DNA of 64,000 nucleotides from an uncultured archaeon (GTDB lineage Archaea; Asgardarchaeota; Lokiarchaeia; Sigyniarchaeales; SOKP01). Positions within the stretch are counted from its first letter, which is position 1. Each line of letters opens with the position of its first letter. The notes beneath the pieces are model-generated. The model ran no database searches and was not told where the DNA came from. It was given only the letters and a program-made list of their open reading frames with translations. The position numbers and the translations under genes are program-made. Below, in pieces: positions 14,189 through 64,000 of the stretch. The stretch is taken from positions 241,879 through 305,878 of the forward strand of contig CAZALK010000003.1 of NCBI GenBank assembly GCA_964486045.1, in the 5' to 3' direction.

Positions 14189-14255
14189 GGTAAAAAAAAT
14201 TTATTAAAATACCATTATAATATAAAAATAATTTTTTAGCTTTAAAGGAATAAGT

Positions 14256-43033: not shown

Positions 43034-43168
43034 TCTAACAACAATTTTTTTTTATTTTTTTCATTAAAACCATATTTTTTTGTATTATCTCCTAGGTGGA
43101 TTTTAATTCAAATTTTCTTACAGTCTTCTTATTGTCATATCTTGACAATAAGTTCTGTTAATTCTTTT

Positions 43169-43237
43169 AAGTTCAATCATATAGTTGATGTTACAGTTTA
43201 AGAGATTTTAAAAAGTGATAATTTAAAAAAGTAAAAA
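43169..43237 (+). repeat. 69-bp direct repeat, copy 1 (copy 2 at 48350-48418)
   Basis: AAGTTCAATCATATAGTTGATGTTACAGTTTAAGAGATTTTAAAAAGTGATAATTTAAAAAAGTAAAAA; 3 mismatches to copy 2. Confidence 0.85.
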
Positions 43238-43497
43238 CCTTCATCACAAAAGCCATGAATTTCATTTTCTTTTTGCATTATTCTTCGCCTTTTTTGTAAA
43301 AATAAAACTTGGTAAATGCAATACTAGCAGCTACCTATAAAAATATTACCATAAGATAATTTTACGCAAATCTAACCTTACAAGTAAAACCAGAATAACT
43401 AATTAAATATTTGATAACTTTTGAACAATATTGAAAAGATTTATATTAACAATCAGTTTAAGAGTATACTATCTTTTAACAAAACAGGTGAAATAAG

Positions 43498-44520
43498 ATT
43501 AATAAAAAAAAACAAAAGAGCCTATCCAAGATATTTTTTATTATTCTCATATTTTCTCTTTCAGGAATTACATTTTCGGGGTTCAATAAGACGCATACTG
43601 AAAATATAGAATTTGATATACAAACTTCCGTTCTTGGAATTGAATTACGAGATAGAGGTTCGGCTTTTAGTGGAATTAGCCCACTTGAAGTTATTCCAAC
43701 TGTATCAAATTTTACTGTTTGGGCAGATATTTGGAATAATGGATCTGACCCTTCTGGTGCTTTTAATGTATCCTTTCGTGCATCTGATAATGGTAACATT
43801 ACCCCCTCTGACACCGAGATAGGGAAAGTAACAGTTTCATCAATCAGCGCTGGAGATAATGCTACTGCTAGTTATACTGGTATATTTCCTGAAATAACAT
43901 TTGTAACATTTGGTCAACCCATTGATTATAGTTTTATAATTGGGTTCATTATTGATGTAGACGATGATGTAGTTGAGGATAATGAAGTAAATAATTGGGG
44001 TTTTTTAAATTATGTAGGATCCGATGTAGTATATGTTGCTAATAAATCCGATCTTAGAGATAGAGGACCTACTTATTCTGGAATGAATGCAACAACCGTA
44101 ATACCGGGAGTTACAGCTTTTTCGGTCTTTGCTGATATAGAAAATAGAGGATTAAAAGAGGCAGAAAGTTCCAACGTGTCTTTCTATGCATCTCTGGATA
44201 CAAATATTACTACATCAGACTATTACTTAGGGTATGATGCTCTACTACCACTCTCAAATGGAACTTTTGCGGATGTTTCCTGGGCGGGAACATTTCCCAA
44301 CATAACAGAGGGATCATACTACATCGGTTGGATTATTGACGTGAATGATGATGTTGACGAAGGGCACGAAGAAAACAACCAAGCCCATATACTCACACAA
44401 TTAATAGTGAGTATACCAGGTGCTTCCGGCGGGATTCCGGGGTATAATATAATTTTATTAGTTAGCATTGGATCTATTATTTCGGTCATCATTGTTATTA
44501 GGAAAATGAAAAGAAAATGA
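43498..44520 (+). CDS. Surface protein with two CARDB/Ig-like domains and IPGY-TM-basic (Loki-CTERM-like) tail; probable ATT start
   Basis: Frame of track ORF 44083-44520 is open back to a TGA at 43489-91; AGGTGA then ATT at 43498 gives a signal peptide (INKKKQKSLSKIFFIILIFSLSG) and two LRDRG...IIDV.DDV.E..E.NN domains. Confidence 0.8.
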   Translation: MNKKKQKSLSKIFFIILIFSLSGITFSGFNKTHTENIEFDIQTSVLGIELRDRGSAFSGISPLEVIPTVSNFTVWADIWNNGSDPSGAFNVSFRASDNGNITPSDTEIGKVTVSSISAGDNATASYTGIFPEITFVTFGQPIDYSFIIGFIIDVDDDVVEDNEVNNWGFLNYVGSDVVYVANKSDLRDRGPTYSGMNATTVIPGVTAFSVFADIENRGLKEAESSNVSFYASLDTNITTSDYYLGYDALLPLSNGTFADVSWAGTFPNITEGSYYIGWIIDVNDDVDEGHEENNQAHILTQLIVSIPGASGGIPGYNIILLVSIGSIISVIIVIRKMKRK

Positions 44521-44808
44521 ATATTAATTTACACTTTTTTTTATTTTTTTATTAAAGCCCCAATTTTTCGGTAATATCTTCTAGGCAAAATTTAAATCAA
44601 GGATTATTACAATCTTTTCACTGTCAAAAGAATTAAAAACACAGAGTATAATTTAATGCTTATTTGGAGAATTGTTGGTGTTTGGCTGCCGTAAGTAAAC
44701 TTTATGACACTAGAGAAGGAGCAAATAAAATTTAATAATCTTAAGAATTAAATATTGTTTTTTCTTATTGATGTATAATTTAACCTTTAACAAAAATGTG
44801 AGAAAAAT

Positions 44809-46362
44809 ATGAAAAAAAAATCTACAATCACTAAATTTTTAATGACTGAATTACTATTGTGGGGTGTTTTCTCATTAATCTTGAGTTCTACACCTGTTTC
44901 TTTTCAAAATGTTACCAGAACTAGCGAATCTTTTAATCTTAAGTCTAGTGCTATGGATTTCTCAAATGCTACTGTAATTTCAGACGGATTTAGTGGTACT
45001 TATTGGAATGATGACAATAGCTATAATCCCGCAGTTGCAGTCGATAGTAGCAACACAGTTCACATTGTATGGTATGATTACACTAGTGGTCCATGGGGCG
45101 TGGACGCCGAAATTATGTATGCTAACTACACTATTGCTACAGGTTGGTCAAATGCCACTGTAATTTCTGATGGATTTGGTGGTGTTTATTGGAATGATGC
45201 CAGTAGCTCTCATCCCGCAATTGCAGTTGATAGTAATAACACAGTTTACGTATTTTGGGAGGATTTCACTGATGGTCCATGGGGTTCCGATTTCGAAATA
45301 ATGTATGCCAAATTCACTATTGCCACAGGTTGGTCCAACGCAACCGTAATTTCTGATGGATACAATGGTGTTTATTGGAACGATGCTGGTAGTTATAAAC
45401 CCACAGTTGCGGTTGATAGTAGCAACACAGTTCACGTTGCGTGGCATGATTACACTAATGGTGTATGGGGCACGGATATAGAAATTATGTATGCTAATTA
45501 CACTATTGCTACAGGTTGGTCAAATGCCACTGTAATATCTGATGGATTTGGTGGGGTTTATTGGAATGGTGGTATTAGCGCGGCTCCCGCAATTGCGGTC
45601 GATAGTAGCAACACGGTTCACGTAGTTTGGTATGATTGGACTAATGGTCTATGGGGCACAGATACCGAAATAATGTATGCGAAACATGTGACTGCAACGG
45701 GATGGTCCAACGCAACTATAATTTCTGATGGATATGGAGGTGTTTATTGGAATGATGGAGGTAGCAGTAATCCTGCAATTGCTATTAATAGCACCAATGG
45801 AATTCATGTAGTATGGGACGATGGGACTAGTGGTGTATGGGGCACAGATAGTGAAATAATGCACGTTGAATACATAACAGAGTGGTCAAATACCACCGTA
45901 ATTTCTGATGGACAAAATAACATTTTTTGGAATGATGGCAATAGTTATGATCCAGAAATCGTTGTGGATGGTAACGACGCTATTCACGTCGTTTGGGTGG
46001 ACGAAACCGATGGTGCATGGGGAACCGATAGTGAGATAATGTACACTGAATTCACAATGGTGACTGGATGGTCTCTACCTTTGGTAATTTCTGATGGATA
46101 TGGTGGTGATTTTTGGAATGATGGAAGCAGTGTCACACCTAGAATTGCTGCCGGCACCATAGCAGTTTACATAGTATGGGAGGATACAACCAACGGTGAG
46201 TGGGGTATCGATTATGAGATAATGCATTCGTCAATTCCAATTCCTGCACCCTTCGTCTACAGTACACCAGGAACAAAGGGTATTCCTTTTGGAAACTTTT
46301 ACCTATTATTTATCTTTGTAGGAATAATAGGGATTATAATATATATCAAACGTAAGATATAA
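44809..46362 (+). CDS. Seven-repeat surface glycoprotein, paralogue 2
   Basis: Same architecture as 41480-43033. Confidence 0.88.
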   Translation: MKKKSTITKFLMTELLLWGVFSLILSSTPVSFQNVTRTSESFNLKSSAMDFSNATVISDGFSGTYWNDDNSYNPAVAVDSSNTVHIVWYDYTSGPWGVDAEIMYANYTIATGWSNATVISDGFGGVYWNDASSSHPAIAVDSNNTVYVFWEDFTDGPWGSDFEIMYAKFTIATGWSNATVISDGYNGVYWNDAGSYKPTVAVDSSNTVHVAWHDYTNGVWGTDIEIMYANYTIATGWSNATVISDGFGGVYWNGGISAAPAIAVDSSNTVHVVWYDWTNGLWGTDTEIMYAKHVTATGWSNATIISDGYGGVYWNDGGSSNPAIAINSTNGIHVVWDDGTSGVWGTDSEIMHVEYITEWSNTTVISDGQNNIFWNDGNSYDPEIVVDGNDAIHVVWVDETDGAWGTDSEIMYTEFTMVTGWSLPLVISDGYGGDFWNDGSSVTPRIAAGTIAVYIVWEDTTNGEWGIDYEIMHSSIPIPAPFVYSTPGTKGIPFGNFYLLFIFVGIIGIIIYIKRKI

Positions 46363-46646
46363 TCTAACTATTTTTTTTTTAATTTTTCAATTAAAACCCA
46401 AATTTTTTTGTAATATCTCCTAGATGGATTTGAATTCAAATTTTCTACATGTCTTCTTATTGCCAGAAGGTATAAAAGCATAAAGCGTAATTTGAAACCT
46501 TATTTGGAAAATTAATGGCGTTTGGTCGAAGTAAGTATTCAGCATGCATCAAAAAAAGTAATAATTAAAATTTCATAAGCTCAAGAATTAAATAGTGTTT
46601 TATCTTATTGAGCTGTAATTTAACTTTTCTTAAAAGGGAGAAAAAT

Positions 46647-48197
46647 ATGAAAAAAAAATCTGTAATAACTAAATTTTTAATGGCTCAATTACTATTATGG
46701 GGAGTTTTCTCGTTAATCTTGAGTTCTACACCAGTTTCTTCTCAAGATGTTACCAGAATTAGAGAATCATTGAATCTTAAGTCTAGCGCTGTGGATTTCT
46801 CAAATGCTACCGTAATTTCAGACGGGTTTGGTAGTATTTATTGGAATGATGACGGGAGCTCTAATCCCGCAGTTGCGGTCGATGGGAGCAACGTCGTTCA
46901 TGTAGTATGGGACGATGAGACTGATGGTGCTTGGGGTACGGATTTCGAAATTATGTATGCTAACTACTCTATTGCCACTGGTTGGTCAAATACCACTGTA
47001 ATTTCTGATGGATTTGGTGGTGTTTATTGGAATGATGGCAGTAGCACTCATCCCGCAGTGACGGTAGATAGTAATAACACAGTTCACGTAGTTTGGGAAG
47101 ATTTCACTGATGGTCCATGGGGAACGGGTATTGATTCAGAGATAATGTATGTCAAATTCACTACTGCCACAGGTTGGTCCAACGCAACCATAATTTCTGA
47201 TGGATATAGTGGTGTTTATTGGAATGATGACAGGAGTCATAAACCCACAGTTGCGGTCGATAGTAGCAACACAGTTCACGTTGCGTGGCATGATTACACT
47301 AATGGTGTATGGGGCGCGGATATAGAAATTATGTATGCTAACTACACTATTGCAACAGGTTGGTCAAACGCCACTGTAATTTCTGATGGATTTGGTGGGG
47401 TTTATTGGAATAATGGCATTAGCGCTGTTCCCGCAGTTGCGGTCGATAGTAGCAACGCAGTTCACGTTGCGTGGCATGATTACACTAGTGGTGTATGGGG
47501 TGCTGATATCGAAATAATGTATACTAAACATACGACTGCAACAGGATGGTCAAATGTCACTGTAATTTCTGATGGATTTGGTGGGGTTTATTGGAATGAT
47601 AGCCCCAGCTTTAATGCTGCGATTGCTATTAACAGCACCAATGGAATTCATGTAGTATGGGACGATGAGACTGATGGTGCTTGGGGCATAGATAGGGAAA
47701 TAATGTACGCTGTATACACAACGGGTTGGTCAAATGCCACTTTACTTTCTGATGGACAAAATAATATTCATTGGAATGATGGGGATAGTAATAACCCAGG
47801 AATCGTTGTCGATGGTAACAACGTAATTCACGTTGTGTGGGAAGATCAAACTAATGATGGTTGGGGAATCGATTCGGAGATAATGTACACTGAATTCACA
47901 ACTGCGACAGGATGGTCTCTACCTTTGGTAATCTCTGATGGATATGGTGGTGATTATTGGAACGATGGAAATAGTGCTGGACCTAATATTGCTGCCGGTA
48001 CCACAGCGGTTCACGTAGTTTGGTATGATTTCACTGTCGGTCCATGGGGTACGGATAGCGAAATAATGCATACATCAATTCCTCTTCCTGCCTCTGTCAT
48101 TGACAGTAAACAAGGTATTCCTTTTGGAAACTTTTACATATTATTTATCTTTGTTGGAATAATAGGGATTATAGTATATATCAAACGTAAGATATAA
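46647..48197 (+). CDS. Seven-repeat surface glycoprotein, paralogue 3
   Basis: Same architecture; start moved to MKKKSV at 46647 by alignment with the paralogues. Confidence 0.88.
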   Translation: MKKKSVITKFLMAQLLLWGVFSLILSSTPVSSQDVTRIRESLNLKSSAVDFSNATVISDGFGSIYWNDDGSSNPAVAVDGSNVVHVVWDDETDGAWGTDFEIMYANYSIATGWSNTTVISDGFGGVYWNDGSSTHPAVTVDSNNTVHVVWEDFTDGPWGTGIDSEIMYVKFTTATGWSNATIISDGYSGVYWNDDRSHKPTVAVDSSNTVHVAWHDYTNGVWGADIEIMYANYTIATGWSNATVISDGFGGVYWNNGISAVPAVAVDSSNAVHVAWHDYTSGVWGADIEIMYTKHTTATGWSNVTVISDGFGGVYWNDSPSFNAAIAINSTNGIHVVWDDETDGAWGIDREIMYAVYTTGWSNATLLSDGQNNIHWNDGDSNNPGIVVDGNNVIHVVWEDQTNDGWGIDSEIMYTEFTTATGWSLPLVISDGYGGDYWNDGNSAGPNIAAGTTAVHVVWYDFTVGPWGTDSEIMHTSIPLPASVIDSKQGIPFGNFYILFIFVGIIGIIVYIKRKI

Positions 48198-48428: not shown

Positions 48429-50123
48429 TTAAAATGGTAACCAAAAATACACACAAACTATGCCTAAGGCAAATGCCAAAACTGCCCAGAAATATCGCAT
48501 ATGCTTGGCATAATTTCTATGTCTGCCTCCCGCTTCAGATTCTATGGTATCTACTTGTATGTAAGGAATTGGCCCTCTACGGTACCAACCTTTTATTCTG
48601 ACTCTTTGACCAATTAATCTTCTAACCGTTCTAAGAGAGAAAATCAGATCAACAAATCTAATTCCGAATCTATAATCAACAAACATACGACCAGTGTTGT
48701 CTTGGAATAACATATCCTCACTGAAATAATATCCTGGAACTCCTCTTCCAACAATTTTACCTTCCAGTATTGCAGGTACGGTTCTAATTGGGCTCACTTT
48801 TACGTTTGTTACAAGATCAACTACTTTATGTGGGGTGAATCCACTCTTATACATATATCTCGTCTTAATCAAAGAAGCAAAACCAACTAAATATAATCCT
48901 ACTGCCCATACGAGGAATACATTTTGTGCATTTAAAAACAATATTGCTGTTGGTGTAATCATCCATATAATCGTTAAGACAATCAAAGCTATTAATATCA
49001 GAGTAGGTAGTATTTTCATAAGGATATCTCCAATAAACTCATCCAACAAAGATTTTCCTGCTTGTTCTTCTTTCAATTTTCTGGCAATAGTAAAGTCAAT
49101 TTCAGGTTTTACACCATATGTCTCACATTGCTCATTCAAACGCATAATTCTTTTTGCGGGGAGTGGATGTGTAGATTTAATTTCAAAATATTTTGCCCAA
49201 GGATTAAATAAGTCCCATGCTGCTGCAGCTTGTATTGCATCCATTGACAGAACTCCTGTAGTAGTTACACTTATTATTCCTAATCCTTTTGCTGTACTTG
49301 GATCGAAGATGCCTAATCCTCGGAGTGCTCGAACTCTTGATTTTTTTACTTCTTGAACACTACTTTCAACTAGTAAACCATAGGCAATCTTAACTAGTCC
49401 AGTTGATAACGCATTTGGATTTTCTAACACCTCAGCACTATGTTCATCAGCATAATATTCTCGCACTCTACTAACTATCAATGATATTAGATGTCCTACA
49501 TAATAGGCGATAAAAGATAACACAGCTATCGCAATTAAAGCCATTCTAAGAACATTAGCTTCACCACTATCGCTTGATCTTCGTCTACCAGAAAACCAGC
49601 TAGCATAATATGCCCATCGAGCAACTGTCAATAAGACTAATGGAATTGCAAACACAATAGTCATAATTATAAAATCTGAATGCACAACATGCCCTAATTC
49701 GTGTGAAAATACCGCATTCTGCTCCTTTTTATTTAAGTACTTTAGAATTCCATCTGTAATTATAATTCTCGCTGAATTTTTACTCCAGCCAAAAGTAAAT
49801 GCATTCGGATTGAGATCATGAATAATTCCAAGTCTCGGTTGTCTAATTCCATTAAATGCAACCACTTTATCAAGGGAATCTGCTAAGTGAGGATAATTCC
49901 TCGCAAAATCTTCGTAAGATATCCAATCTATAGCATAAAGCCAATTAACAATTAGCGGAGAAATTCCATATTGGAGTAATACCATTCCTATTGTTAATGC
50001 AACCATTATTAATAATCCGAACAGAGAAGAAGGCAAGAACCACACACCTATAACAAAAATAACTGCATAGAGAAGTGCAAACAAGGCAGTTATTGCTAAT
50101 CCTGAAGCTACTTTTAATCCCAT
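48429..50123 (-). CDS. htpX: HtpX-like M48 zinc metalloprotease with C-terminal TM + OB-fold-like extension
   Basis: PNAFTFG, HELGH, SRVREYYAD, STHP....RI. Confidence 0.88.
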   Translation of the reverse strand: MGLKVASGLAITALFALLYAVIFVIGVWFLPSSLFGLLIMVALTIGMVLLQYGISPLIVNWLYAIDWISYEDFARNYPHLADSLDKVVAFNGIRQPRLGIIHDLNPNAFTFGWSKNSARIIITDGILKYLNKKEQNAVFSHELGHVVHSDFIIMTIVFAIPLVLLTVARWAYYASWFSGRRRSSDSGEANVLRMALIAIAVLSFIAYYVGHLISLIVSRVREYYADEHSAEVLENPNALSTGLVKIAYGLLVESSVQEVKKSRVRALRGLGIFDPSTAKGLGIISVTTTGVLSMDAIQAAAAWDLFNPWAKYFEIKSTHPLPAKRIMRLNEQCETYGVKPEIDFTIARKLKEEQAGKSLLDEFIGDILMKILPTLILIALIVLTIIWMITPTAILFLNAQNVFLVWAVGLYLVGFASLIKTRYMYKSGFTPHKVVDLVTNVKVSPIRTVPAILEGKIVGRGVPGYYFSEDMLFQDNTGRMFVDYRFGIRFVDLIFSLRTVRRLIGQRVRIKGWYRRGPIPYIQVDTIESEAGGRHRNYAKHMRYFWAVLAFALGIVCVYFWLPF

Positions 50124-50402: not shown

Positions 50403-51626
50403 CTATTTAATTTGAATTTGTTCTAATTTCATTAGAAGAGGATCTATTATATCTAAATCCTTAGTGTGAGTAAATGGGAGGTATTTTTTCATTAATAAAG
50501 TTTGGAAGTGAGAAATAAATCTCTTTTTTAGTTTTTGATAAAAATCTTCTATTAATTTAACAGCTATAAATTGCCAATCCTCGTTAATTTTTTTCATTTC
50601 TTCATTAGAGTAGATATTAAGAAATATTTTACTCTTTAGAATCACAATTCTATCTCCTTCGAAATCAAATTGAGAAGAAATTGAAAAGTTTGATAAATTT
50701 TTTAAATAACTTTGCAATTCCTTTTGTATTATAGATCTATCAGTTAGCTCACTTAATATCCCTACTAAATCGCTAAGAATGTCAATTATTATATAAACTT
50801 GACGCCCTTCCTCCTCCACGATTTTAATATATTCTTTTTTATATAATCTTTCAAGTAAATGTACGATTCTATCACCATGAGATTCAACCAAACTTTTAAC
50901 TCGAGCTACATTTTCTAGATCTTTCAAAATTTTTACAAAATTTAAATACGGGAAGTTATTAATAATCGACATGCACTCTTCATCATTAGATATATAAAAT
51001 TGTTGTATTTTATCAGTAGCGATAATATAATCCCTCTTCTCAATTATGTTTTCAAAATTTATCGCTTTCAGATAATAGGCAAAATTTAACTTTTCATAGC
51101 ATTCAGTTCGGTATTCAGATGAAAAATAATCACATTCTATTATTCGAGTTGTTACACAACAGCATGTCATTGGACACTTTTCATCATTTATTTCTACCAA
51201 TTTATTATTTTCATTCGGAATTACAACCCAATCTTCTGATATTGGAACTCTAAATAAAAGACGAATTAATTTTCTCTGAAAACACTCAAATAGGTGGATT
51301 TTAGGAATTTCTCCATCAATTATATCCAGTCTTTCTAATTCATGAAAAATAGTTTTAACTCGATTCTGTAGATGTAAGACTGGGATATTCGAGATTATAG
51401 TTAAAATATAATTTTCTCCTTTAAATTCTGTTATTTTGTTTTTTCCGTAATCTAATACAAAATGTTTGGATTTAGTTTTAAATATTTCTTCTGAAAAACT
51501 CCCTAAAGCTGATAAAAAACCTGAAAGTAAGGTTTCATCAAGAATTAATGAATTATCATTAAAATCAAATAGCGCAATCGGAAGTCCATAAGTATTAGAA
51601 ACTAAAACTTTCTCTACGACAAGAAT
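50403..51626 (-). CDS. Longin/roadblock-like domain protein with Cys-rich middle; probable ATT start
   Basis: Frame of track ORF 50403-51200 is open to a TGA at 51654-56; AGGAGG (51634-39) lies 7 nt before ATT 51626; adds ILVVEKVLVSNTYGLPI...DETLLSGFLSALGSFSEEIF. Confidence 0.78.
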   Translation of the reverse strand: MLVVEKVLVSNTYGLPIALFDFNDNSLILDETLLSGFLSALGSFSEEIFKTKSKHFVLDYGKNKITEFKGENYILTIISNIPVLHLQNRVKTIFHELERLDIIDGEIPKIHLFECFQRKLIRLLFRVPISEDWVVIPNENNKLVEINDEKCPMTCCCVTTRIIECDYFSSEYRTECYEKLNFAYYLKAINFENIIEKRDYIIATDKIQQFYISNDEECMSIINNFPYLNFVKILKDLENVARVKSLVESHGDRIVHLLERLYKKEYIKIVEEEGRQVYIIIDILSDLVGILSELTDRSIIQKELQSYLKNLSNFSISSQFDFEGDRIVILKSKIFLNIYSNEEMKKINEDWQFIAVKLIEDFYQKLKKRFISHFQTLLMKKYLPFTHTKDLDIIDPLLMKLEQIQIK

Positions 51627-51691
51627 ATTTTTTCCTCCTGTATCTCCTTTGCTTCACAGAAACATGAAAAATATTAATTTCTTAATTTTTT

Positions 51692-51997
51692 CTATTTTTT
51701 CCACCGAGATTTTTTTTTCTTTTTTTCTAATAATTTATCTGGAACTGGAATGTTATTCCTGCGAGCGAGAACAATTGCAGTCATTTTTGAGACCAAATTG
51801 ACAGAGGAGTAATTAACTAACAACTTCTGAACACAAGAAAGATGATCCTCATCAATCCAATCAATTTCAAGCTGATCTGTTAGACCTATACCTGAATCAT
51901 AACAAATTTCACCCATTTTCGTAGAGCCATATAGACCTAAACCTCTTTCCACCATTAAATCTACAAAAGCCTTCAATTTACCATCAGTTAGAGCCAT
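51692..51997 (-). CDS. Small helical hypothetical protein coupled to the ODP gene
   Basis: 101 aa; overlaps the upstream gene by 10 bp; GAGG upstream. Confidence 0.75.
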   Translation of the reverse strand: MALTDGKLKAFVDLMVERGLGLYGSTKMGEICYDSGIGLTDQLEIDWIDEDHLSCVQKLLVNYSSVNLVSKMTAIVLARRNNIPVPDKLLEKKKKKSRWKK

Positions 51998-52707
51998 GTT
52001 CCAACCTCAAAAGTTCTTAATGCTTCCACATATTTTGAGATATCCTTATTAATAATAGAGCCATGTTGGGGACAAATCATGTTTATTTCTAAGTTCTTTA
52101 TCTTATTTATGAAATTTTCAATAGCAGATTTGTGTGGCATATAAGGTTCATGAAAGGCTCTCATCGCTTCGATATAATTTTCATTTGCATAAAGCTCCCA
52201 ATCTATTGAAAATGCAGAGAAAATGTCTGATGAGAAAAGAGTTTTGGTTTGTTTATCATAAGTAGTAAAAGCTCCTGGAAAATGCAAGTATGGTGAAGTA
52301 ATAAACATTAACTCTCTTCCACTCTCCAGTTCTAAAATATCACCATCCATAATAGTTGTAACTTCTGTATAGACATCATAGTAGGGAATGAAAAGTGCAG
52401 TTCTCATAGATGTAATTATTTCAAAATTATCTTTACCGATTATTTCCTCAAATAATGGAATTGAGGCACATAGATCTGGATCTTGGTGGTGTACTAGAAT
52501 GTGCGTTATTTTTTCAACATTAATAATTGATTCTATTTTCTTCTTGACAATACCAAAATGATCTACTCTTCGAGAACCAGGATCAATTAACACTACATCT
52601 TCTCCTTCAACTATTAAATATGGATTATTGGCAAAACCAGCATTAGTATCACTCCAACCTACCCAATATATCCCTTCATTTATTTGTATAGCTTCTTCTG
52701 TCGTCAA
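51988..52707 (-). CDS. Stand-alone MBL-fold di-iron protein, ODP (oxygen-binding di-iron protein)-like
   Basis: NPYLI, IDPG, HQDPD, LHFPG, LFSSD, PQHG; no flavodoxin domain. Confidence 0.85.
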   Translation of the reverse strand: MTTEEAIQINEGIYWVGWSDTNAGFANNPYLIVEGEDVVLIDPGSRRVDHFGIVKKKIESIINVEKITHILVHHQDPDLCASIPLFEEIIGKDNFEIITSMRTALFIPYYDVYTEVTTIMDGDILELESGRELMFITSPYLHFPGAFTTYDKQTKTLFSSDIFSAFSIDWELYANENYIEAMRAFHEPYMPHKSAIENFINKIKNLEINMICPQHGSIINKDISKYVEALRTFEVGTWL

Positions 52708-53090: not shown

Positions 53091-56000
53091 TCATTTCATA
53101 AACAATCGCAAAATAAATGTAGATCCTTTGTTACGTCCTTTAGATTTTACTAAAATTTCACCTATATGTAATTTAACAATTTCATTTGCGAGATATAATC
53201 CAAGCCCTGGTCCTTCAATATCAACATCCAAACCTTTTCCATATCTCTCGATTTTACCAAATTTTTTAAATAGAGTCGGCAATTCTTTTTCAGTTATTCC
53301 TACACCCGTGTCTCTTATGATTATATCCATAAAATTTTGGTGTTCAATTGATTTGATATAAATATTCCCATTGGGTGTAGTATTTTTGACAGCATTGGAT
53401 AATAGGTTTGAAATTGCTTTTTTAATCATTTCTTTATCTACATCAATATATAATTCATCAAGAAGTTCAATATTTATGAAGATTTTACGTTTCTCGGCCT
53501 GAAACATTAAATTTTCAACACACTCTTTAATAATAAGACTCAGATTTTCTCGTTTTATGTTAAAGACTATTTGCTCAGTTTCTAGTTCATAGGCAGTAAT
53601 TAAATTATCAACCATTTCTTTTAATCTATAACCTCCTTGATGTATAATTTTTACTACATCCTCAACATCATTACTCATCTGTTTATTATGAAAATCTAAA
53701 AGAAATTGAGAGCCATTCAAAATTGAAATTAAAGGTGTATTTAGTTCGTGAGAAATCCTTGATATAAGATCATTTCTTATTTGATCGAGTTTCTTTAATT
53801 GTTTTATTTCTCTTTTTATCATATCATCAATTTTTTTTCTTTCCGTGTTATCACTCAACAATCCAAAAACCTTGGGCTGATTATTAATTTCCACTATGCT
53901 CCATCTAGCACAGATTGGCACAAAATATCCTTTTTTATGTTTTATTCTATAGTCTAAAGACACAGCTTTTTGAGTTTTTATTGCTTTTTTACTCATTTCC
54001 TTAAAATAATGTATATCTTCATTATGTACAAAATCCGCTAAGTTCAACTCGAGTAATTCTCCTGATTGATATCCAATAATATTTTTTATCTGAGGACTAA
54101 TATAAGTAATAAGTCCGTTAGGATCAGCTTCAAAGAGAACATCTGAAATATTTGTTATCAAGTTTTGAATTTTTTCCTCTGATTCCTTTAATTCTATTGT
54201 CCTTTCTTCCACTTTTTGCTCTAAAATATTGCTTAATCTTTTATATTTTTGTTCTGAATTCTCCAAAGACTCGAGTGTTTGGGTATTAAAAAGTGATATT
54301 GAAGCAATTTCAGCGAATGTTGTAGCTAACCTCGCATCTTCCTTATTGAATCCTCCTTCTTTATTTGCTAAACCCATGAAACCTTTTACGTCATCACCAA
54401 TTACTAACGGGGCAATTAATACATTTCTAATATGAATATGACCTTTAGGTAAGAAATCTTTCCATTTACTAGTCATAAAGTCATTATAGTATATTGTTTT
54501 TTTAGATTTGACTATCTCCGCTTGCATTCCTCTGACTGGCATAGATAAATCTGAATTTACCTTGGATAGCAAACTTTCAGGATTAATAAAAATTTTTTGA
54601 TATTTTCCCTTTACCAAGGCTGACAATGCAAGATAACCCACTTCCGCTCCTATTAAATCATTACAAGAATCAAATATCATTTTTTGCGTTTTTTCAAAAT
54701 CACTATATTGTAATACCGCCCTTGAAGCATCAAAAAGGGATGAGATTTCTTTAGTTCGTTGCTGGATCAATTGTTCTGCAATTCTTCTCTCTGTTATGTC
54801 CAATCCGTAAACATTTACATAATTTCCCTCCTTTATTGGTGTAAAGGCAAATGAGTATATTTGATCAATTAATTTTATTTCACTTGTCTTAATTGTATTC
54901 GTGTCTATTATTTCAAAAACTATTTCCTTGAACAGTATCGGGAGATTATCACCTTCTTCAATTTCAAACAAAAGTTGACCTGCTGTATTAGTATAAATAA
55001 CTTTTTCTTTACTGACTCTTAGCACGGGATTCGGATTCTCAGAAGGAAATTTAGCTAAGCTTTTTATTTTAGCTTCCGCCTCTTTACGTTCGTTAATATT
55101 TATCACCATTGATCGAGATTCTACAACTTTACCCTTCTCATTCTTCACAGGTTTTACTGTTAAGCTTACCCAGAAGGGATTTCCATTTTTATGTTTCATC
55201 TGAATTTCCACATCCTCGATAATTTTCCCCTCTACAAATTGTTTAAACAATTTTTTGGCTTTCTGTAAACCTTCTGGAGAATTAGAATATAAATCAAAAA
55301 CATTTAAGTCTAGAATCTCCTTCTTAGTATAACCTAAAAGATCACATGCAGGCTGATTGCAACCCTTTATAGATTTGTCTGGGTGAACTGAGAAATATGC
55401 GCTTGGAGCATTTTCGTACAATTCTCTGTATTTTTCTTCGGATTCTCTTAATTTTTGCTCTGCTTCTTTACTTTCCGTGATATCAGAAACAACTCCATCA
55501 AATCTACGAATATTACCTTTTTCATCAAAAATTGGAACTCCCCGATCTCTAACATATCTAATTTCTCCAGTGTCTTTATGAACTAACCGATATTCGAGAG
55601 TATATTCTGTTTTCTCTCTAAAAGCATCAGTATATTTCTTTAATATACCATCTCTATCTTCTTGATGTATTGATTTTGGCCAAGTTTCATGATCCTTATA
55701 AAAATCTTCTGGAGAATATCCTGTCCAATCTTTCCATCTATTAGACACGAATGTTGCTGTACCAGTTTCATCTGATAGAGCAGAATATATAGCGTCAGGA
55801 ATATTTTCTACTAAGTGACGGTACTTTTCTTCTGATTCTTTTAATTCTTGTTCAATTTTCTTGCGTTCAGTAATATCCATAGAATGGGTAATTAAAGCTA
55901 CTACTTTTTCTGATTGGAATACAGGACCAACCCACATATCAAAATATCTAATTTCACCTTCTTTTGTTATATATTTTGTGGTGATTGAACTAGGCTCTCC

Positions 56001-58529
56001 TGTTTCCCAAACAGAATAATATAAATCTCGTGTAACCTTGTGGAATTCTTGTGGTGTGTAGTTGTATATTGAAGTACCAATGACTTCTTCTTTTGAAAGA
56101 TCTGGAACTGTCCGGTTAATAAAGATGATTTTGTGTTCTGGATCTAACAACAGTACGTGAGCGGGTGAGTTCTCACTAAGAGCCCTCCATTTTTCTTCTG
56201 ATTCTTTTAATTTTTGTTCTGCCATTTTGCGCTCGAAATAGCTTCCTAATACTTCAGCAAGGGCATTAATTAAGTTTCTCTCTTCCTTCAAGAAAGGTCC
56301 CTCATCGAATATAGGCATATTTTTCAAATAATAAACTTCAATAGTTCCTATAATTTCATCTCTTCTTTTTATACCAGCTTTTAGCTTCCATTCAGTCTCC
56401 ATAAAGTTTTTTGTTTTAAATTCTTGTCCGTTAAATGATATTCTTGCACAGGTTATCTCTGAATATTGCCATGCTGGTGGAATTAGATCGAGAGTTCCTT
56501 GCAATATCTCCTCCAATGAATAATCTAGACTTCCAACAAGCTTGGAGAGCTCATATAAGCATGTGAGTTCCTTAACTCGTTCTTTGAGATTATATTCAGA
56601 ATTCTTTAAAGCTTCTTCTACCTCTTTGCGATCGGTGATATTTAGAACACTACCGCGAGTATTAATTAAATTATCCTTATCATCAAATCTTGAAGATGCG
56701 TTAAGGAGCACATCAATAAAATGCCCATCCTTATGGATTAATGTATATTCCAAGTTATTGACAGAGCCATTATCTAGAATATCGTTCCAGTGCTTCTCAA
56801 ACTGAAGTTTCTGCTCTGGAATGATTAAGTCATACCATGTTTTTTTATCGACGATTTCCTCACGACTGTAACCTAGCAAGTCCAACTCATATTTATTCAT
56901 GTCTGTGATAATGCGGTCAGATTTGAAAATATGAAAACCGATGGCGGCACTGTCAAAAAAGTCTCTGAATAATTCCTCGTTCATTCGTAATTTTTCTTCC
57001 ATATAGTACCTTTCTGTGATATCTGTAAAAGTACCTTCAATAGCAATCATTTCTCCATTAGAATTTCTTATTAAATGGGCATTTGCTTGAAGAATAATTT
57101 GTTCACCACTTATTTTCTTGGCATAAACGACAAAATCTTTGATAAAACCATTTTTTGTCAATTCTTTTAAATAATTTTGACGATCCTTTGGATTTTGCCA
57201 AAAATCAATAGTTTTAGATCCCGTTAAATTTTCAAGAGGATTAATCCCCAACATTCTATTAAGTTCAGGATTATGTTCTAAATAAATTCCATCAAGGCTC
57301 ACTGTAAAAAATCCTACATCTAAATTATTCACCATGTTTCTAAATTTTTCTTCAGATTCTTTTAACTTTTGTGCTGTTATTTTACGCTCGGTAATGTCGG
57401 TGGAGCGATTAATTATTCCTATGACTTTACCATCTTTCCATACGGGCCCAGAATGTATTTCAAAATAAAATTGCTTCCCATTCTTGTCAAGATATCCTGT
57501 CTCAAATTGGCGGGGTTCACCGTTATTTAGTATTTTATCATAAACATTTCTTTGTAGTTCTTGATATTCTTTTTGAACAAAATCAAATATAGACATTCCA
57601 ATAACTTCATCAATACTTAAATCGGGTACAGTATAATTAATGAATAAAATTTTTGCATCTTTATCCATCATCAGAATGTGATCAGGAGTATATTTCGTGA
57701 TGGATCGCCATTTCTCTTCGGATTTTTTTAATTTTTGCTCTGCTTCTTTACTTTCAGTGATATCACAAACAACTCCATCAAATCTTTTAATATTACCTTT
57801 TTCATTAAAAATTGGTACTCCTCGATCTCTAACATATCTAATTTCTCCAGTATCTTTATGGACTACCCGATATTCGAGAGTATATTCTGTTTTCTCATTA
57901 AAAGCATCAACAAATTTCTTAATTGTACCATCTCTATCTTCTTGATGTATTGATTTTGGCCAAGTTTCATGATCCTTATAAAAATCTTCTGGAGAATAAC
58001 CTGTCCAATCTTTCCATCTATTAGACATGAAGGTTGTTGTACCAGTTTCATCGGGTAGAGCAGAATATATAGCGTTAGGAATATTTTCTACTAAGTTACG
58101 GTATTTTTTTTCAGATTCTTTTAACTTTTGCTCAGTTTGTTGTTTCTCAGCAATTAAGTGTTGTTTTTCAATAAAATTCTTGATATTTGTTAACAAATTA
58201 TCCATATTAAAAGGTTTTAAGATATATCCTGATGCACCTTCATTCAAAGCCTGTACTGCCGAATTTAAAGAGGCATTTCCGGTCATTATTATAACATCCA
58301 TATTTGGATGTTTATCCTTTAAAGGCTTTAAAAGTTCTATCCCTTCAATATCAGGGAGTTTTATGTCTAAAAGAGCCACGTTATAGAATTCCTTAGTAAT
58401 TTTATTAATTGCTTCTTGTCCTGTTTGAGCAATCTCTGTTTTATAACCTACTTTATTCAAAAAAAGTGATAATGTATCTCGTGTAACAGCATTATCATCA
58501 ATGACGATAATTTTTTCCTTAGCTTCCAT
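53091..58529 (-). CDS. REC - multi-PAS - GAF hybrid histidine kinase
   Basis: REC (IDD, LLDIKLPD, KP); many PAS ending DITERK; GAF; SHELNTPL; NLLSNAVK; DTGVG; GLGL. Confidence 0.93.
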   Translation of the reverse strand: MEAKEKIIVIDDNAVTRDTLSLFLNKVGYKTEIAQTGQEAINKITKEFYNVALLDIKLPDIEGIELLKPLKDKHPNMDVIIMTGNASLNSAVQALNEGASGYILKPFNMDNLLTNIKNFIEKQHLIAEKQQTEQKLKESEKKYRNLVENIPNAIYSALPDETGTTTFMSNRWKDWTGYSPEDFYKDHETWPKSIHQEDRDGTIKKFVDAFNEKTEYTLEYRVVHKDTGEIRYVRDRGVPIFNEKGNIKRFDGVVCDITESKEAEQKLKKSEEKWRSITKYTPDHILMMDKDAKILFINYTVPDLSIDEVIGMSIFDFVQKEYQELQRNVYDKILNNGEPRQFETGYLDKNGKQFYFEIHSGPVWKDGKVIGIINRSTDITERKITAQKLKESEEKFRNMVNNLDVGFFTVSLDGIYLEHNPELNRMLGINPLENLTGSKTIDFWQNPKDRQNYLKELTKNGFIKDFVVYAKKISGEQIILQANAHLIRNSNGEMIAIEGTFTDITERYYMEEKLRMNEELFRDFFDSAAIGFHIFKSDRIITDMNKYELDLLGYSREEIVDKKTWYDLIIPEQKLQFEKHWNDILDNGSVNNLEYTLIHKDGHFIDVLLNASSRFDDKDNLINTRGSVLNITDRKEVEEALKNSEYNLKERVKELTCLYELSKLVGSLDYSLEEILQGTLDLIPPAWQYSEITCARISFNGQEFKTKNFMETEWKLKAGIKRRDEIIGTIEVYYLKNMPIFDEGPFLKEERNLINALAEVLGSYFERKMAEQKLKESEEKWRALSENSPAHVLLLDPEHKIIFINRTVPDLSKEEVIGTSIYNYTPQEFHKVTRDLYYSVWETGEPSSITTKYITKEGEIRYFDMWVGPVFQSEKVVALITHSMDITERKKIEQELKESEEKYRHLVENIPDAIYSALSDETGTATFVSNRWKDWTGYSPEDFYKDHETWPKSIHQEDRDGILKKYTDAFREKTEYTLEYRLVHKDTGEIRYVRDRGVPIFDEKGNIRRFDGVVSDITESKEAEQKLRESEEKYRELYENAPSAYFSVHPDKSIKGCNQPACDLLGYTKKEILDLNVFDLYSNSPEGLQKAKKLFKQFVEGKIIEDVEIQMKHKNGNPFWVSLTVKPVKNEKGKVVESRSMVININERKEAEAKIKSLAKFPSENPNPVLRVSKEKVIYTNTAGQLLFEIEEGDNLPILFKEIVFEIIDTNTIKTSEIKLIDQIYSFAFTPIKEGNYVNVYGLDITERRIAEQLIQQRTKEISSLFDASRAVLQYSDFEKTQKMIFDSCNDLIGAEVGYLALSALVKGKYQKIFINPESLLSKVNSDLSMPVRGMQAEIVKSKKTIYYNDFMTSKWKDFLPKGHIHIRNVLIAPLVIGDDVKGFMGLANKEGGFNKEDARLATTFAEIASISLFNTQTLESLENSEQKYKRLSNILEQKVEERTIELKESEEKIQNLITNISDVLFEADPNGLITYISPQIKNIIGYQSGELLELNLADFVHNEDIHYFKEMSKKAIKTQKAVSLDYRIKHKKGYFVPICARWSIVEINNQPKVFGLLSDNTERKKIDDMIKREIKQLKKLDQIRNDLISRISHELNTPLISILNGSQFLLDFHNKQMSNDVEDVVKIIHQGGYRLKEMVDNLITAYELETEQIVFNIKRENLSLIIKECVENLMFQAEKRKIFINIELLDELYIDVDKEMIKKAISNLLSNAVKNTTPNGNIYIKSIEHQNFMDIIIRDTGVGITEKELPTLFKKFGKIERYGKGLDVDIEGPGLGLYLANEIVKLHIGEILVKSKGRNKGSTFILRLFMK
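56626..57066. repeat. About 440-bp apparently identical PAS block shared with 62777-63217
   Basis: Line-by-line comparison at offset 6151 showed no mismatches in the parts checked. Confidence 0.85.
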
Positions 58530-58760
58530 ATCTTAATCTTACTCTAAAATTTTTTTTTAATATATTCTCATAGAGATTATCTAGTAAACTCATCTTTAGG
58601 GCTTAAAGTACAATATATATAATCGATAACTTTTTTTTTAAACTTTAATATTTTAAATTATATCGTCAATAATAGGGGATTTCATTATCGTTATCAAAGT
58701 TTCCTCCACTTTTCTGCTTAATAACTTAACTCAGCTATAATATAAGAGAAGTAACTATCT

Positions 58761-59870
58761 CTATGGTACTCCTTCTGGAATCAATAACACAAAATTACTT
58801 CCTTTAGTAAAATCTCCTTTCACTCTGTCTTTTACCCAGATTTGTCCATTATAGGTTTCTATGGCTTTTTTAACAAGTGATAATCCTAATCCCATTCCCT
58901 TACCACAGTTATGTTCATTATCCCCTTTTTTAAATATGTTTTCTTTTTTGGCATTTGATATGCCTATTCCATTGTCAATAAACTCCATTTCAATATATAC
59001 TTGTCCTTCTTTTTGTATTTTGGAAATATTAACGTGAATTTCCACTGAAGAATTATTATTATAATGCACAGCGTTATCTAAAATATTTTCAAATACGTCT
59101 TTTAAGAGAATATTGGCTTGAACAAAGATATTTTTATAATTCACATTAATCTGAATATCTACCTCTCGATCTTGAGTCCTATCCTTCAAAGAGAGAATTG
59201 CCTGATTTAAGAGTTTACATACCTCTATTGGTAGAATTGGGATCTTAAATTCTTCAATTTCACAAAGCTTGCGAATATTAGAAATCAAATTAACTCCTCT
59301 GTTGACTTCTGCTGAAATAATGCTCACAAATTCTATAATTTTTTCTTTATTTCCAGGTTGGTTAATAAACATTGTACAAAGCTCGGAAGAGCATGAAATA
59401 TTGTTTAGAATATTATTCATATCATGTGTAAACAAATCTCTATAAAATTTAGCGATATTATATGATTTACGATAATTTTCTTCTGATTTTTTTAATTTCC
59501 TCTCTAGATTTTTTCTTTCACTAATATCTCTTGAAATCACTAGAACTTTTGATTTTTTATCTTTATCAACAATTACTTTTCCAATAGTTTCAACCCAAAT
59601 ATAATGCCCCTCTTTATGACGAAGTCTTACTTCTATACTCCCTTCATTTAATTCAAAAATTTTATTGAATAGTTCCAAAACATTATTTAGATCATCAGGA
59701 TGTAAGAATTGAGATCCTTTTTTACCAACAAAATACTCTCTGGTATATCCTAACATGTTAAGTAAAGCCTCTTCATTTACATATTCAATTATAAATTGAT
59801 GATCAAGAACAGAAATTAAATCCTTAGCGTTTTCAGAGATAAGTTTATATTTTTCTTGCGATATATTCAA
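58761..59870 (-). CDS. PAS histidine kinase
   Basis: LHPDD, RDISERK, THDMNN, NILDNAVHY, DNGIG, GMGLGL. Confidence 0.92.
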   Translation of the reverse strand: MNISQEKYKLISENAKDLISVLDHQFIIEYVNEEALLNMLGYTREYFVGKKGSQFLHPDDLNNVLELFNKIFELNEGSIEVRLRHKEGHYIWVETIGKVIVDKDKKSKVLVISRDISERKNLERKLKKSEENYRKSYNIAKFYRDLFTHDMNNILNNISCSSELCTMFINQPGNKEKIIEFVSIISAEVNRGVNLISNIRKLCEIEEFKIPILPIEVCKLLNQAILSLKDRTQDREVDIQINVNYKNIFVQANILLKDVFENILDNAVHYNNNSSVEIHVNISKIQKEGQVYIEMEFIDNGIGISNAKKENIFKKGDNEHNCGKGMGLGLSLVKKAIETYNGQIWVKDRVKGDFTKGSNFVLLIPEGVP

Positions 59871-60018
59871 TTTTAGTTCACTCCTATACGCTCAGTATTA
59901 TCTATCAGACATCCTATAATCTCCCTTGACACTTCTCCTTTTAACATTCTTTTTATCCTCTTCACTTTTTCTGTTTTATCTTTTTTAATGTAGGCAAAAG
60001 ATAATCACTAATTGCAGT

Positions 60019-63000
60019 TTATTTTATAAACAATCTTAAAATAAATGTTGATCCCTCATTCCGTCCTTTAGATTTTACTAAAATTTCACCTACATGTAAT
60101 TTAACAATTTCATTTGCAATATACAATCCAAGACCTGGTCCTTCAATATCTACATCCATCCCTTTTCCATATCTTTCTATTTTACCAAATTTTTTAAATA
60201 GGGTTAGCATTTCTTTTTTTGTTAATCCTACACCCGTGTCTTTTATGATTATATCCATAAAATTATGGTGTTTAATTGATTTGATGAAAATATTACCATT
60301 GGGTAGTGTGTTCTTAACAGCATTAGATAACAGATTCAAAATTACTTTTTTAATCATTCTTTTATCTACATCTATATTTAAATCGGGTGGAAGCTCAATA
60401 TTTATGAAAACTTTACGTTTCTCGGCCTGAAAAATTAATTCTTCAACACACTCCTTTACAATAGGAATTAGATTTTCTCGTTTTATATTGAATATTATTT
60501 GCTCAGTTTCTAGTTCATAGGCAGTAGTTAAATTATCGACCATTTCTTTTAATCGATAGCCTCCTTGATAAATAATTTTAACAATATCTCCAACTACATT
60601 ACTCATCTGATCATTATACGAATCTAAAAGAAATTGAGAACCATTCAAAATGGAAATTAACGGTGTATTTAATTCGTGGGATATTCTTTGTATAAGGTCG
60701 TTCCTAATTTGATCGAGTTCTTTTAATTGTTTTATTTCCCTTTTGATCATATTATCAATTTCTTTTCTTTCGGTATTATCACTCATTAATCCAATAACCT
60801 TAAATTCATTATTAATTTCCACCAAGCTCCATCTGGCAGAGACTGGCACAAAGTATCCTTTTTTATGTTTCAATCTACATTCTATAGATACAACCTTTTT
60901 AGTTTCTAATGCTTTAGCAGCCGTTTCCTTAAACGAATTTACATCTTCAAGGTGTATCAATTCCATGAAATTCAATCCAATTAATTGTTCTGACTGATAT
61001 CCAATTATATTATTTATTTGAGGACTAATATAAGTAAGAATCCCACTAGGTTCCGCCTCTAACAAAACTTCGGAAATATTGGTTATCATATTTTGAATTT
61101 TTTCCTCTGATTCCTTTAATTCTATAGTCCTTTCCTCTACTTTTTGCTCTAAAATATTGCTCAATCTTTTATATTTCCGTTCTGATTTCTCCAAAGACTC
61201 AAGCATTTGACAATTTAAAAGTGAAATTGAAGCTAATTCTGCAAATGCAGTAGCTAACCTCGCTTCTTCCTCAGTAAATCCGCCTTCCCTATTTACTAAA
61301 CCCATCAAACCTTTTACCTCATCATTAATTATTAATGGGGCAAATAATACATTATTTACGGGAATATGCCCTTCAGGTAAGAAATTTATCCAATCACTAT
61401 TAGAAAAGTTATTTTGGTAAAGAGTTTTTTTGGACTTGATTACTTCACCATGTATCCCTCTAATAGGCACTGGTAAATCTAGATCTACTTCGCATTGTAA
61501 TTTTCCAGGATTCGAAAAAATTATTTGATTTTGTTTCTTGTCTGGGGTTAAAATCCCAATGTAACCAGCTTCTGCTCCAATTAAGGTCATACAAGAATTA
61601 AATATCAGGCTTGCTACTATTTCAAAGTCGTTATATTGTAAAACTGCCCTTGATGCATCTAAAAGCATTGAAATTTCCTTGGTTCGCTTTTGGATCGCTT
61701 GTTCTGCCATTTTTCGGACTGTAATGTCCATTCCGTAAACATTTACATAATTAGTTTCCCTTATTGGATTTATGACAAGTGAATATATTTGACCAGCTAA
61801 TTCTATTTCAGCTGTTTTAGTTATCTTAGTCTTCATTACTTTATCAACCATATCTTTAAGCAACATTGGAGTTTTATCACCTTCTTCAATTTTAAATAGA
61901 TCCTGACTTACTTTATTGGCATAGATAATTCCATTTCTATTAATCCTTAATACTGGATTTGGGTTCTCAGAAGGAAACTTTGCTAAGTTGTTTATTTTTT
62001 CTTCAGCCTCATTGCGCTCGAAATATCTTCCTAAAATTTCAGCACAAGCATTAATTAAGTTTCTTTCTTCCTTTAAGAAAGGTCCTTCATCGAATATAGG
62101 CATATTTTTCAAATAATAAACTTCAATAGTTCCTATAATTTCATTTATTCTTTTTATATCAGCTTTTTGCTTCCATGTAGTCTCCTTAAAGTTTTTAGTT
62201 TTAAATTCTTGTCCGTAAAATGATATTCTTGCGCACGTTATCTCTGGAAATTGCCATGCTGGTGGAATTAGGTCGAGAGTCCCTTGTAATATCTCCTTCA
62301 ATGAATAATCTAGACTTTCAACAAGCTTGGAGAGTTCATATAGACAAGTGAGTTCCTTAACTCGTTCTCTGAGATTATGTTCAGACTTTTTTAACTCTAG
62401 TTCTACTACTTTACGCTCGGTGATATTTCGTGCGATTGTTGAGGTACCAATAATGATATCATCTTTATCCTTGATTGGAGATATTGTCAGGGAGATATTA
62501 ATTTCCTCGCCGTCCTTTCTCACGCGCACAGTTTCAAAATGATCAATAAGGTCTCCCGCTTTAATTCTTTCGAGAATGCCCGACACCTCATCGGGACGAT
62601 CAGACGGAACAAGTATGGAAATAGGCTTTCCTATGATCTCTTTGGATGTGTAGCTATAAATTCTCTCCGCACCTTTATTCCAACTAATAATAGTCCCGTC
62701 TAATGTCTTTCCGGTGATCGCATCGTCTGAATTCTCCACGATGGCTGCCAATTTAAGGTTTATTTCCTCCGCCTTCTTGCGATCGGTGATATTTAGAACA
62801 CTACCGCGAGTATTAATTAAATTATCCTTATCATCAAATCTTGAAGATGCGTTAAGGAGCACATCAATAAAATGCCCATCCTTATGGATTAATGTATATT
62901 CCAAGTTATTGACAGAGCCATTATCTAGAATATCGTTCCAGTGCTTCTCAAACTGAAGTTTCTGCTCTGGAATGATTAAGTCATACCATGTTTTTTTATC

Positions 63001-63921: not shown

Positions 63922-64000
63922 TTGTTGGGATTCACTAACTATCATTTCCTCATAAAATCTCAAAAATTAGTATATCATAGTTCGTAAAACATAAGTTTCC

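Follow-up and report, generated by a model that had tools for sequence, protein, structure and literature searches.

A stand-alone oxygen-binding di-iron protein encoded beside a small helical protein and an NPRL2-like longin protein in Asgard archaea

The Asgard genome studied here, assigned to Promethearchaeota/Lokiarchaeia by the names of its homologues, encodes, in a confirmed three-gene unit on the minus strand of the window (the whole 64,000-nucleotide stretch of DNA that was analysed), a stand-alone oxygen-binding di-iron protein (ODP), an unnamed 101-aa helical protein, and a 407-aa longin protein that resembles NPRL2, a subunit of the GATOR1 complex. The best reading of this cassette, to which a probability of roughly 0.45 can be assigned, is that of an O2/Fe(II) sensor which would act through an adaptor on a longin protein serving as non-catalytic platform for a small GTPase. 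The components of this reading differ in firmness: that the three genes form one functional unit is very likely, and the ODP probably acts as the sensor; passage of the signal to the NPRL2-like protein is somewhat favoured, and a small GTPase as the final target is plausible at slightly under even odds.

The three-gene unit and the start of its third gene

The features of the locus, which includes three histidine kinase genes upstream of the unit, are as follows.

50403 to 51626, minus strand: NPRL2-like gene, 407 aa, predicted to comprise a longin domain, winged helix 1, winged helix 2 and a helical C-terminal domain
50406 to 50816, minus strand: helical C-terminal domain, about residues 271-407, from the secondary structure of the model, to which nothing in NPRL2 corresponds in the matches
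50817 to 51245, minus strand: two winged-helix repeats in tandem, spanning roughly residues 128-196 and 197-270, in the region matching NPRL2 122-326
51099 to 51176, minus strand: Cys cluster (C151, C155-157, C165, C176) in winged helix 1, found in 6 of 59 family members
51249 to 51626, minus strand: longin domain, residues 1-126 (about 120 residues aligned by VIA-align, with Z 10-11.4 and an rmsd of about 3 A)
51624 to 51626, minus strand: inferred ATT (AUU) start codon of the NPRL2-like gene, where Met1 of orthologues aligns
51634 to 51639, minus strand: Shine-Dalgarno motif AGGAGG, 7 nt 5' of the ATT, with similar motifs in relatives
51692 to 51997, minus strand: unnamed helical protein of 101 aa, putative adaptor, sharing 10 nt with the end of the ODP gene and following the ODP in 25 of 25 genomes
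51988 to 52707, minus strand: stand-alone ODP, 239 aa, with a TTG start (Pfam PF19583)
53091 to 63963, minus strand: three co-oriented PAS histidine kinases (context), identified by Pfam, 383 nt upstream of the ODP

A prior, sequence-only reading of this DNA had described an MBL-fold protein with HQDPD, HFPG, SSD and PQHG motifs, an overlapping 101-aa helical ORF, and a third gene whose N-terminal 142 codons were absent from the ORF track. All three elements were recovered: the ODP carries HHQDPD, LHFPG, FSSDIF and PQHG, the small ORF runs from 51997 to 51692 with its 10-nt overlap, and the absent codons extend from the ATT at 51626 to a TTG at 51200, a segment missed by standard callers. The frame of the third gene is free of stops between 51653 and 50403 (416 codons), with the TTG at 51200 as its earliest ATG, GTG or TTG codon, and the database entry for the protein (P0005) is shorter still, at 255 aa.

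The position of the start is indicated by full-length orthologues from three genomes of the order, whose match begins at residue 3-4 of the 407-aa protein, and by the presence of ATT at the equivalent place in six related contigs (L029/L089, L031, L032, L087 and L091), the last of which harbors two in-frame stops two codons 5' of the conserved ATT. A frameshift or sequencing error is ruled out by this conservation in relatives, and by the fact that no indel is found across the region in two DNA assemblies, one of which may be the source. The phenomenon also extends to the rest of the genome, in which 104 long ORFs lack a standard start inside their first 45 codons; among the 26 late-start ORFs that bear a Shine-Dalgarno motif, an in-frame ATT, ATA or ATC is found 5-9 nt from it in 20, compared to 3 and 2 in the other frames, a pattern which indicates that the ATT start is a habit of the organism and not a peculiarity of the NPRL2-like gene. 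Synthesis of the 407-aa protein is thus presumed to initiate at AUU, and starts of this type hide eukaryotic-signature domains from annotation. A scan of the locus for sigma-70 promoters and terminators, which does not cover archaeal promoters, yielded matches at chance level.

The di-iron protein and its small partner

The 239-aa protein is a member of the ODP family that carries a putative di-iron residue set. It matches Pfam PF19583 with 201 bits over model positions 2-194 with no flavodoxin match, and its closest PDB matches are 6qrq (E 7e-31) and 6qnm (E 5e-23), with flavodiiron proteins (FDPs) appearing from 4e-16 or weaker. Residues H74, D76, D78, H142, D161, Q214 and H215, which we take to be the metal ligands from alignment to 6qrq and 6qnm and from general knowledge of FDP sites, do not vary among 26 Asgard ODP sequences. 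The HQDPD motif is devoid of the motif-2 His of FDPs, while the His and bridging-Asp motifs are of the ODP type; furthermore, the motif-5 Gln (PQHG), a reported peculiarity of ODPs (PMC7785958), is invariant in the same 26 sequences.

The FDPs (FprA, flavorubredoxin) possess a homologous di-iron MBL domain, but are proteins of about 400 aa that include a flavodoxin domain and fall in a separate clade. In 400 genomes of the phylum the distribution is bimodal: stand-alone ODP frames, 244-270 codons long, reach 170-205 bits, while FprA proteins (about 400 aa) score at most 117 bits. In a FastTree analysis, a branch with support of 100 splits FprA from the ODPs, and the Asgard ODP clade (support 88) is placed beside Ca. 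Scalindua; the FprA proteins of the same phylum, which carry HxExDH and P[SA]HG motifs, group apart. This split in length and score, together with the separation in the tree, rules out that the protein is an FprA fragment, and its initial recognition as an ODP is upheld by the Pfam score and the ODP-type motifs. The host genome encodes two ordinary, full FprA genes as well. Databases often label Asgard ODPs as FprA or flavorubredoxin.

Bacterial ODPs have been described in Treponema denticola, where TDE2498 pairs with the soluble receptor TDE2496 (Muok et al. 2019, as cited in PMC7666581 and PMC7785958), and in Thermotoga maritima, which provided structures 6qnm and 6qrq (same sources). Like the Asgard protein, they are stand-alone MBL proteins, of about 240-255 aa, which carry no flavodoxin domain, display HQDPD, H-x-x-G, S-x-D and PQHG motifs with the motif-5 Gln, and are encoded by a gene coupled to that of a signalling partner. 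The Asgard system differs in that this partner, in an archaeon, is a small protein plus an NPRL2-like longin protein and not a chemoreceptor, and in that O2 binding is predicted. By analogy with the bacterial ODPs, the Asgard protein could load Fe(II) and bind O2, so that its state would report on both iron and oxygen.

The 101-aa gene is an obligate partner gene of the ODP in Asgard cassettes. Its product displays an RG-x4-G motif and a basic C-terminal tail, is matched by no Pfam or NCBIfam family, and is modelled (pLDDT 89) as a helical protein with a short hairpin. A search for PDB folds identified no clear match (best Z 6.2), H-NOX 6mx5 (Z 5.8) being level with unrelated helical matches, and in the Atlas V4R and HNOB reached TM values of 0.56 and 0.53, respectively. 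The best Atlas shape match (TM 0.67 over 94 residues) is a 369-aa bacterial ODP family whose length suggests an ODP fused to a domain resembling the small protein, the aligned part of the target not being given. In addition, homologues of the small protein are encoded directly 3' of the ODP in Ca. Scalindua and Nitrospinae (pairwise E about 1e-12 and 2e-11), and in Ca. Scalindua the gene pair is followed by a hybrid histidine kinase. The protein would define an unnamed adaptor family common to bacterial and archaeal ODPs and, as its natural fusion to the NPRL2-like protein in paralogues suggests, could serve as a dedicated ODP adaptor that docks on that protein. The possibility that the C-terminal domain of the NPRL2-like protein is a repeat of the small-protein fold is not backed by profile comparison, where the HHalign probability stays under 1, and a 91-aa gene located 5' of homologue P0006 is unrelated to the small protein.

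The NPRL2-like longin protein

Structure prediction of the 407-aa protein (pLDDT 88.8, pTM 0.84 for the whole model) assigns to residues 1-126 a longin fold of five strands and three helices, which agrees with the proposal that the missed codons encode such a domain, and in which a small-residue helix, LSGFLSA, is conserved. The best shape matches of this region are TRAPP subunits, Fuzzy, Mon1 and sedlin (Z 10-11.4, rmsd 2.6-3.5), which rank above roadblocks. The original label of 'longin/roadblock' is correct as to the longin but covers only part of the molecule, which is predicted to be a full NPRL2-like protein, with a pair of winged helices followed by a helical tail. The two winged-helix repeats resemble each other (HHalign probability 93.9, E 1.6e-7), HTH_NPRL3 matches occur in three family members, and weak TrmB/MarR/HTH matches are also seen.

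The relationship to NPRL2 is supported by a profile built from 59 family members, which ranks human NPRL2 (matched over residues 122-326 at E 8e-8) and yeast Npr2 (E 0.004) above all other PDB sequences, with a second, different alignment repeating the match to human NPRL2 (E 3e-7). The best five Foldseek matches are all GATOR1/SEAC chains, aligned over 338-365 columns, the whole-chain TM to NPRL2 being low (0.17-0.21). Together, the profile and Foldseek matches indicate that the 407-aa protein is one of the Asgard NPRL2-like proteins described by Liu et al. (10.1101/2020.10.19.343400), which share its domain plan and are reported from most Thor and a few Loki genomes, a distribution that fits the one seen here. 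The main text of that study ties these proteins to amino-acid starvation and to two-component fusions, and mentions neither lactamase or flavodiiron neighbours nor a small partner.

NPRL2 and NPRL3 (Npr2/Npr3) of GATOR1/SEACIT provide the top structural matches of the Asgard protein and resemble it in having an N-terminal longin domain followed by the region corresponding to NPRL2 122-326, but the Asgard protein lacks a conserved arginine finger and GP motif and has an extra helical C-terminal domain and, in one clade, a Cys cluster. Moreover, the cassette includes neither an NPRL3 or DEPDC5 partner gene nor a second longin gene, unlike GATOR1, and is linked instead to a di-iron protein. In NPRL2 the arginine finger is Arg78, located on a longin loop (PMC8534245), and the GP motif is a feature of GAP longins (PMC12290439). 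In the 59-member alignment of the Asgard family no longin column holds Arg in at least 40% of sequences; the loop between the fourth and fifth strands, whose equivalence to that of NPRL2 follows the strand order of the model and not a residue-by-residue alignment, is short (GEN), and the motif reads G-x-P instead of GP.

The CPMTCCC...C...C stretch recognized earlier is indeed present, at residues 151-176, but it is clade-specific, being found in 6 of the 59 family members, where it replaces the residues of winged helix 1 typical of the family; members without it display an I-D-G helix-turn-helix start at that position. This occurrence rules out a family-wide metal site. The most divergent of these six members retains C151, C155, C165 and C176, and a clade-specific metal site is possible at this cluster.

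Conservation, output and alternative readings

The survey covered 400 genomes of the phylum, with one stand-alone ODP (G282), which falls among bacterial ODPs and is found without the small gene, being left out. The Asgard ODP clade is present in 25 of these genomes, from eight families. The small gene lies next to the ODP in all 25, and the NPRL2-like gene adjoins the pair in 22, the three remaining loci being situated at contig ends; its position is 3' of the pair in 6 genomes, 5' in 15 and divergent in 1. The expectation that the association would be conserved in Asgard archaea has thus been borne out, across Asgard classes. The cassette is nonetheless patchy, with a single occurrence among 135 genomes from the family of the host, and in three Loki's Castle assemblies the ODP and small gene are intact while an in-frame deletion has left 81 aa of the NPRL2-like protein. 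In the tree of NPRL2-like proteins, a quick tree with a midpoint root and long-branch warnings, the ODP-linked members constitute the deeper branches, and the linkage between the ODP and NPRL2-like genes appears to be old within the phylum.

The connection to small GTPases comes from paralogous cassettes of one family, probably Thorarchaeia to judge from Atlas taxa and homologue names, in which there is no ODP and the NPRL2-like and small genes are either separate or fused (about 530 aa). A Ras-family GTPase directly follows the cassette in 22 of the 27 loci where the gene after it can be seen, an arrangement that recalls MglA/MglB-type GTPase-roadblock operons. Those paralogues that are fused or lie beside a GTPase fall into a single clade (support 100) which, under the midpoint root, is nested among ODP-linked members; as they derive from one family, they count as about one event. 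In the host, contig C6 carries an operon of a longin, a Ras-like GTPase and a longin-winged-helix protein, which includes a more distant NPRL2-like paralogue, but single adjacencies of this type are weak, since the genome holds about 79 small-GTPase-like ORFs; 15 Gtr1/RagA-like matches are candidate clients. Within the ODP cassettes of the surveyed genomes no conserved GTPase gene was found. The suggestion of an O2/iron sensor with a GTPase-regulator output is upheld in so far as an ODP lies beside an NPRL2-like protein, but the GTPase link passes through paralogues of one lineage and the protein displays no arginine finger; taken as a whole, the sequence-only interpretation is partly supported.

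The best reading of the cassette would have a bacterial-type two-gene sensor, composed of ODP and adaptor, plugged into a eukaryote-like GTPase regulator. The NPRL2-like protein may dimerise via its longin domain and function as a non-catalytic platform, GEF-like or scaffolding in nature, rather than as an arginine-finger GAP, and its client could be a small GTPase of the Ras/Rab or Rag type that is encoded at another locus. In shape, the longin domain is matched best by the longin GEF platforms Mon1-Ccz1, Fuzzy-Inturned and TRAPP; the Asgard protein differs from these and from MglA/MglB operons in having a single longin combined with winged helices, in a cassette with neither a second longin gene nor a GTPase. 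Complex prediction of the three proteins with the ODP as partner scored 0.06, for a mark of 0.32, with controls not folded, and is given no weight for or against the reading.

The same sensor and adaptor could have an output other than a GTPase, either through the winged helices, by contact with DNA or another partner, or through a histidine kinase modulated by the ODP and adaptor, the longin protein then serving as scaffold. This is a serious if somewhat unlikely alternative, and it draws on the operon of ODP, small gene and hybrid kinase in Ca. Scalindua, on the fusion of NPRL2-like longins to two-component domains (reported by Liu et al., 10.1101/2020.10.19.343400), and on the two winged helices with their weak TrmB/MarR/HTH matches in a protein that has no arginine finger. 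The PAS kinases upstream are also in its favor. They are real and co-oriented, as first noted, but their link to the unit holds only in close relatives, where a PAS kinase with cheD or other che genes is located 5' of the cassette; in distant orthologue loci no PAS kinase is recognisable at the ODP, nor is any kinase recognisable beside the cassette. In addition, the winged helices best match the protein-contact region of NPRL2, and the Ras-like GTPases of the paralogous cassettes point toward the GTPase output. That the NPRL2-like protein is instead a true GATOR1-type GAP employing a displaced arginine, which would make the module an oxygen-gated GAP, is highly improbable: among relatives of known structure the catalytic subunit NPRL2 is the nearest, and a basic residue is common near the hairpin of the third and fourth strands (Arg in 52% of one alignment), yet the broad alignment reveals no longin Arg column at 40%, G-x-P stands in place of the GP motif described in PMC12290439, and the best longin shape matches are GEF subunits.

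Two other explanations concern the ODP itself. It could be protective or metabolic, scavenging O2 or NO or buffering iron, and simply be co-expressed with an NPRL2-like protein that controls or accompanies it and receives no signal. Homology to the O2/NO-reducing domain of FDPs, the patchy, accessory distribution, and the lineage in which the NPRL2-like gene is deleted in frame while the ODP is intact are all compatible with this notion, which is nevertheless improbable in light of cassettes that hold neither a flavodoxin domain nor a redox partner gene, of a host that already possesses two full FprA genes, of HQDPD and PQHG where FDPs carry HxExDH and P[SA]HG, and of the fact that the characterised ODP is a sensor (PMC7666581). 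A Treponema-type route, in which the ODP would signal via a soluble chemoreceptor and CheA, the neighbouring genes being passengers, is very unlikely. The host genome does contain 10 MCP and 3 CheW matches, and in one close relative cheW/cheC, cheR and cheD lie upstream of the cassette; however, no cassette contains a chemoreceptor gene, and in the loci examined neither a chemoreceptor nor a c-di-GMP enzyme gene is coupled to the ODP, whose neighbours are the small and NPRL2-like genes, with linkages of 25/25 and 22/25. Furthermore, genomes G044 (a single contig) and G142, both with the cassette, gave no MCP or CheW match, and the case of G044 indicates that the known partner class of ODPs is not required by the cassette.

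While ODPs and Asgard NPRL2-like proteins have each been described before, their coupling and the small adaptor appear to be new, neither having been found in a literature search in which subscription papers were thinly covered and which, with the same coverage, found nothing on Asgard oxygen sensing by a di-iron protein. Asgard genomes encode many longin proteins and small GTPases for which hardly any input signals are known, and the cassette suggests that a protein related to NPRL2, a regulator of mTORC1, has a specific, testable input in O2/Fe(II). Stated in full, the tentative proposal, about as probable as one chance in three, is that an Asgard small-GTPase switch is gated by O2 and ferrous iron through the ODP, the adaptor and the NPRL2-like longin platform; if true, the sensing of O2/Fe, and not that of amino acids, would have been the role of the archaeal precursor of a GATOR1 subunit. 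The cassette has a bearing on the perception of oxygen by the archaeal ancestors of eukaryotes. The module should be tractable, consisting of three small soluble proteins, and an intact copy of the cassette is present in a genome whose ODP is annotated as that of Ca. Lokiarchaeum ossiferum, a cultured organism.

Surroundings of the cassette

The genes that surround the cassette, which encodes the stand-alone oxygen-binding di-iron protein (ODP), the small helical putative adaptor and the NPRL2-like protein, include the following:

Window 41480-48197: three paralogous secreted proteins in tandem, 517-529 aa
Window 48429-50123, co-oriented with the cassette and 279 nt downstream: HtpX-like peptidase M48 gene
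Window 53091-63963: two giant REC-PAS-GAF-kinase genes, with near-identical PAS blocks common to both

The peptidase gene also neighbours the cassette in three Loki's Castle assemblies (L086-L088, GCA_000986845.1 among them), where the ODP is intact, its gene call having used an internal start (139 aa), and where the NPRL2-like gene is truncated (8358-8616) by an in-frame deletion of ~1 kb that leaves 81 aa. The secreted proteins have a membrane anchor at the C-terminus and contain approximately seven internal repeats, and a CARDB-like gene is interspersed among their genes. Beyond the kinase genes, the end of the window is the contig end.

NPRL2-like paralogues and small GTPases

Longin proteins and small GTPases are encoded at further loci:

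L124 (host genome, G000:C6:13407-15653): stand-alone longin (Fuz_longin_1), Ras-family GTPase and a longin/winged-helix protein of 366 aa that is paralogous to the NPRL2-like protein, in one operon
Window 13280-14188: Gtr1/RagA-like GTPase (E 1.5e-20)
L030:9696-11230 and L027:5735-7039: solitary NPRL2-like paralogues, accompanied by neither the ODP nor the small gene

The Gtr1/RagA-like gene, one of 15 in the host genome, is the middle member of a three-gene unit (window 11721-15470). In L030, the lone paralogue is preceded by the gene of a 91-aa Cys-rich protein. In L109 (G336:C121), the NPRL2-like and small genes are fused, a partial duplicate comes next, and there are two flanking small GTPases.

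ODP and small protein in bacteria

Both proteins are also encoded together in bacteria:

Ca. Scalindua (L094:5001-10738): consecutive genes for the ODP, a homologue of the small protein and a 1721-aa hybrid histidine kinase
L093:5001-6034, Nitrospinae: ODP and small-protein homologue, with a NiFe hydrogenase operon on one side and flagellar genes on the other

Chemotaxis genes adjoin the Ca. Scalindua row. Among named bacterial relatives of the Asgard ODP clade, the ODP of this row is the nearest. A bacterial-type stand-alone ODP, without the small gene, lies on a 4.6-kb contig (L033, G282:C366) of a genome from the archaeal host's own family; this ODP may have been transferred separately, or the contig may be misbinned.

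ATT-type starts in the host genome

Genome-wide, approximately 20 long ORFs have an apparent ATT, ATA or ATC start after a Shine-Dalgarno-like motif; such codons were placed in frame in 20/26 cases, versus 3/26 and 2/26 out of frame. Judged by eye, an actin-like protein and a HIT-like one are among the products of these ORFs.
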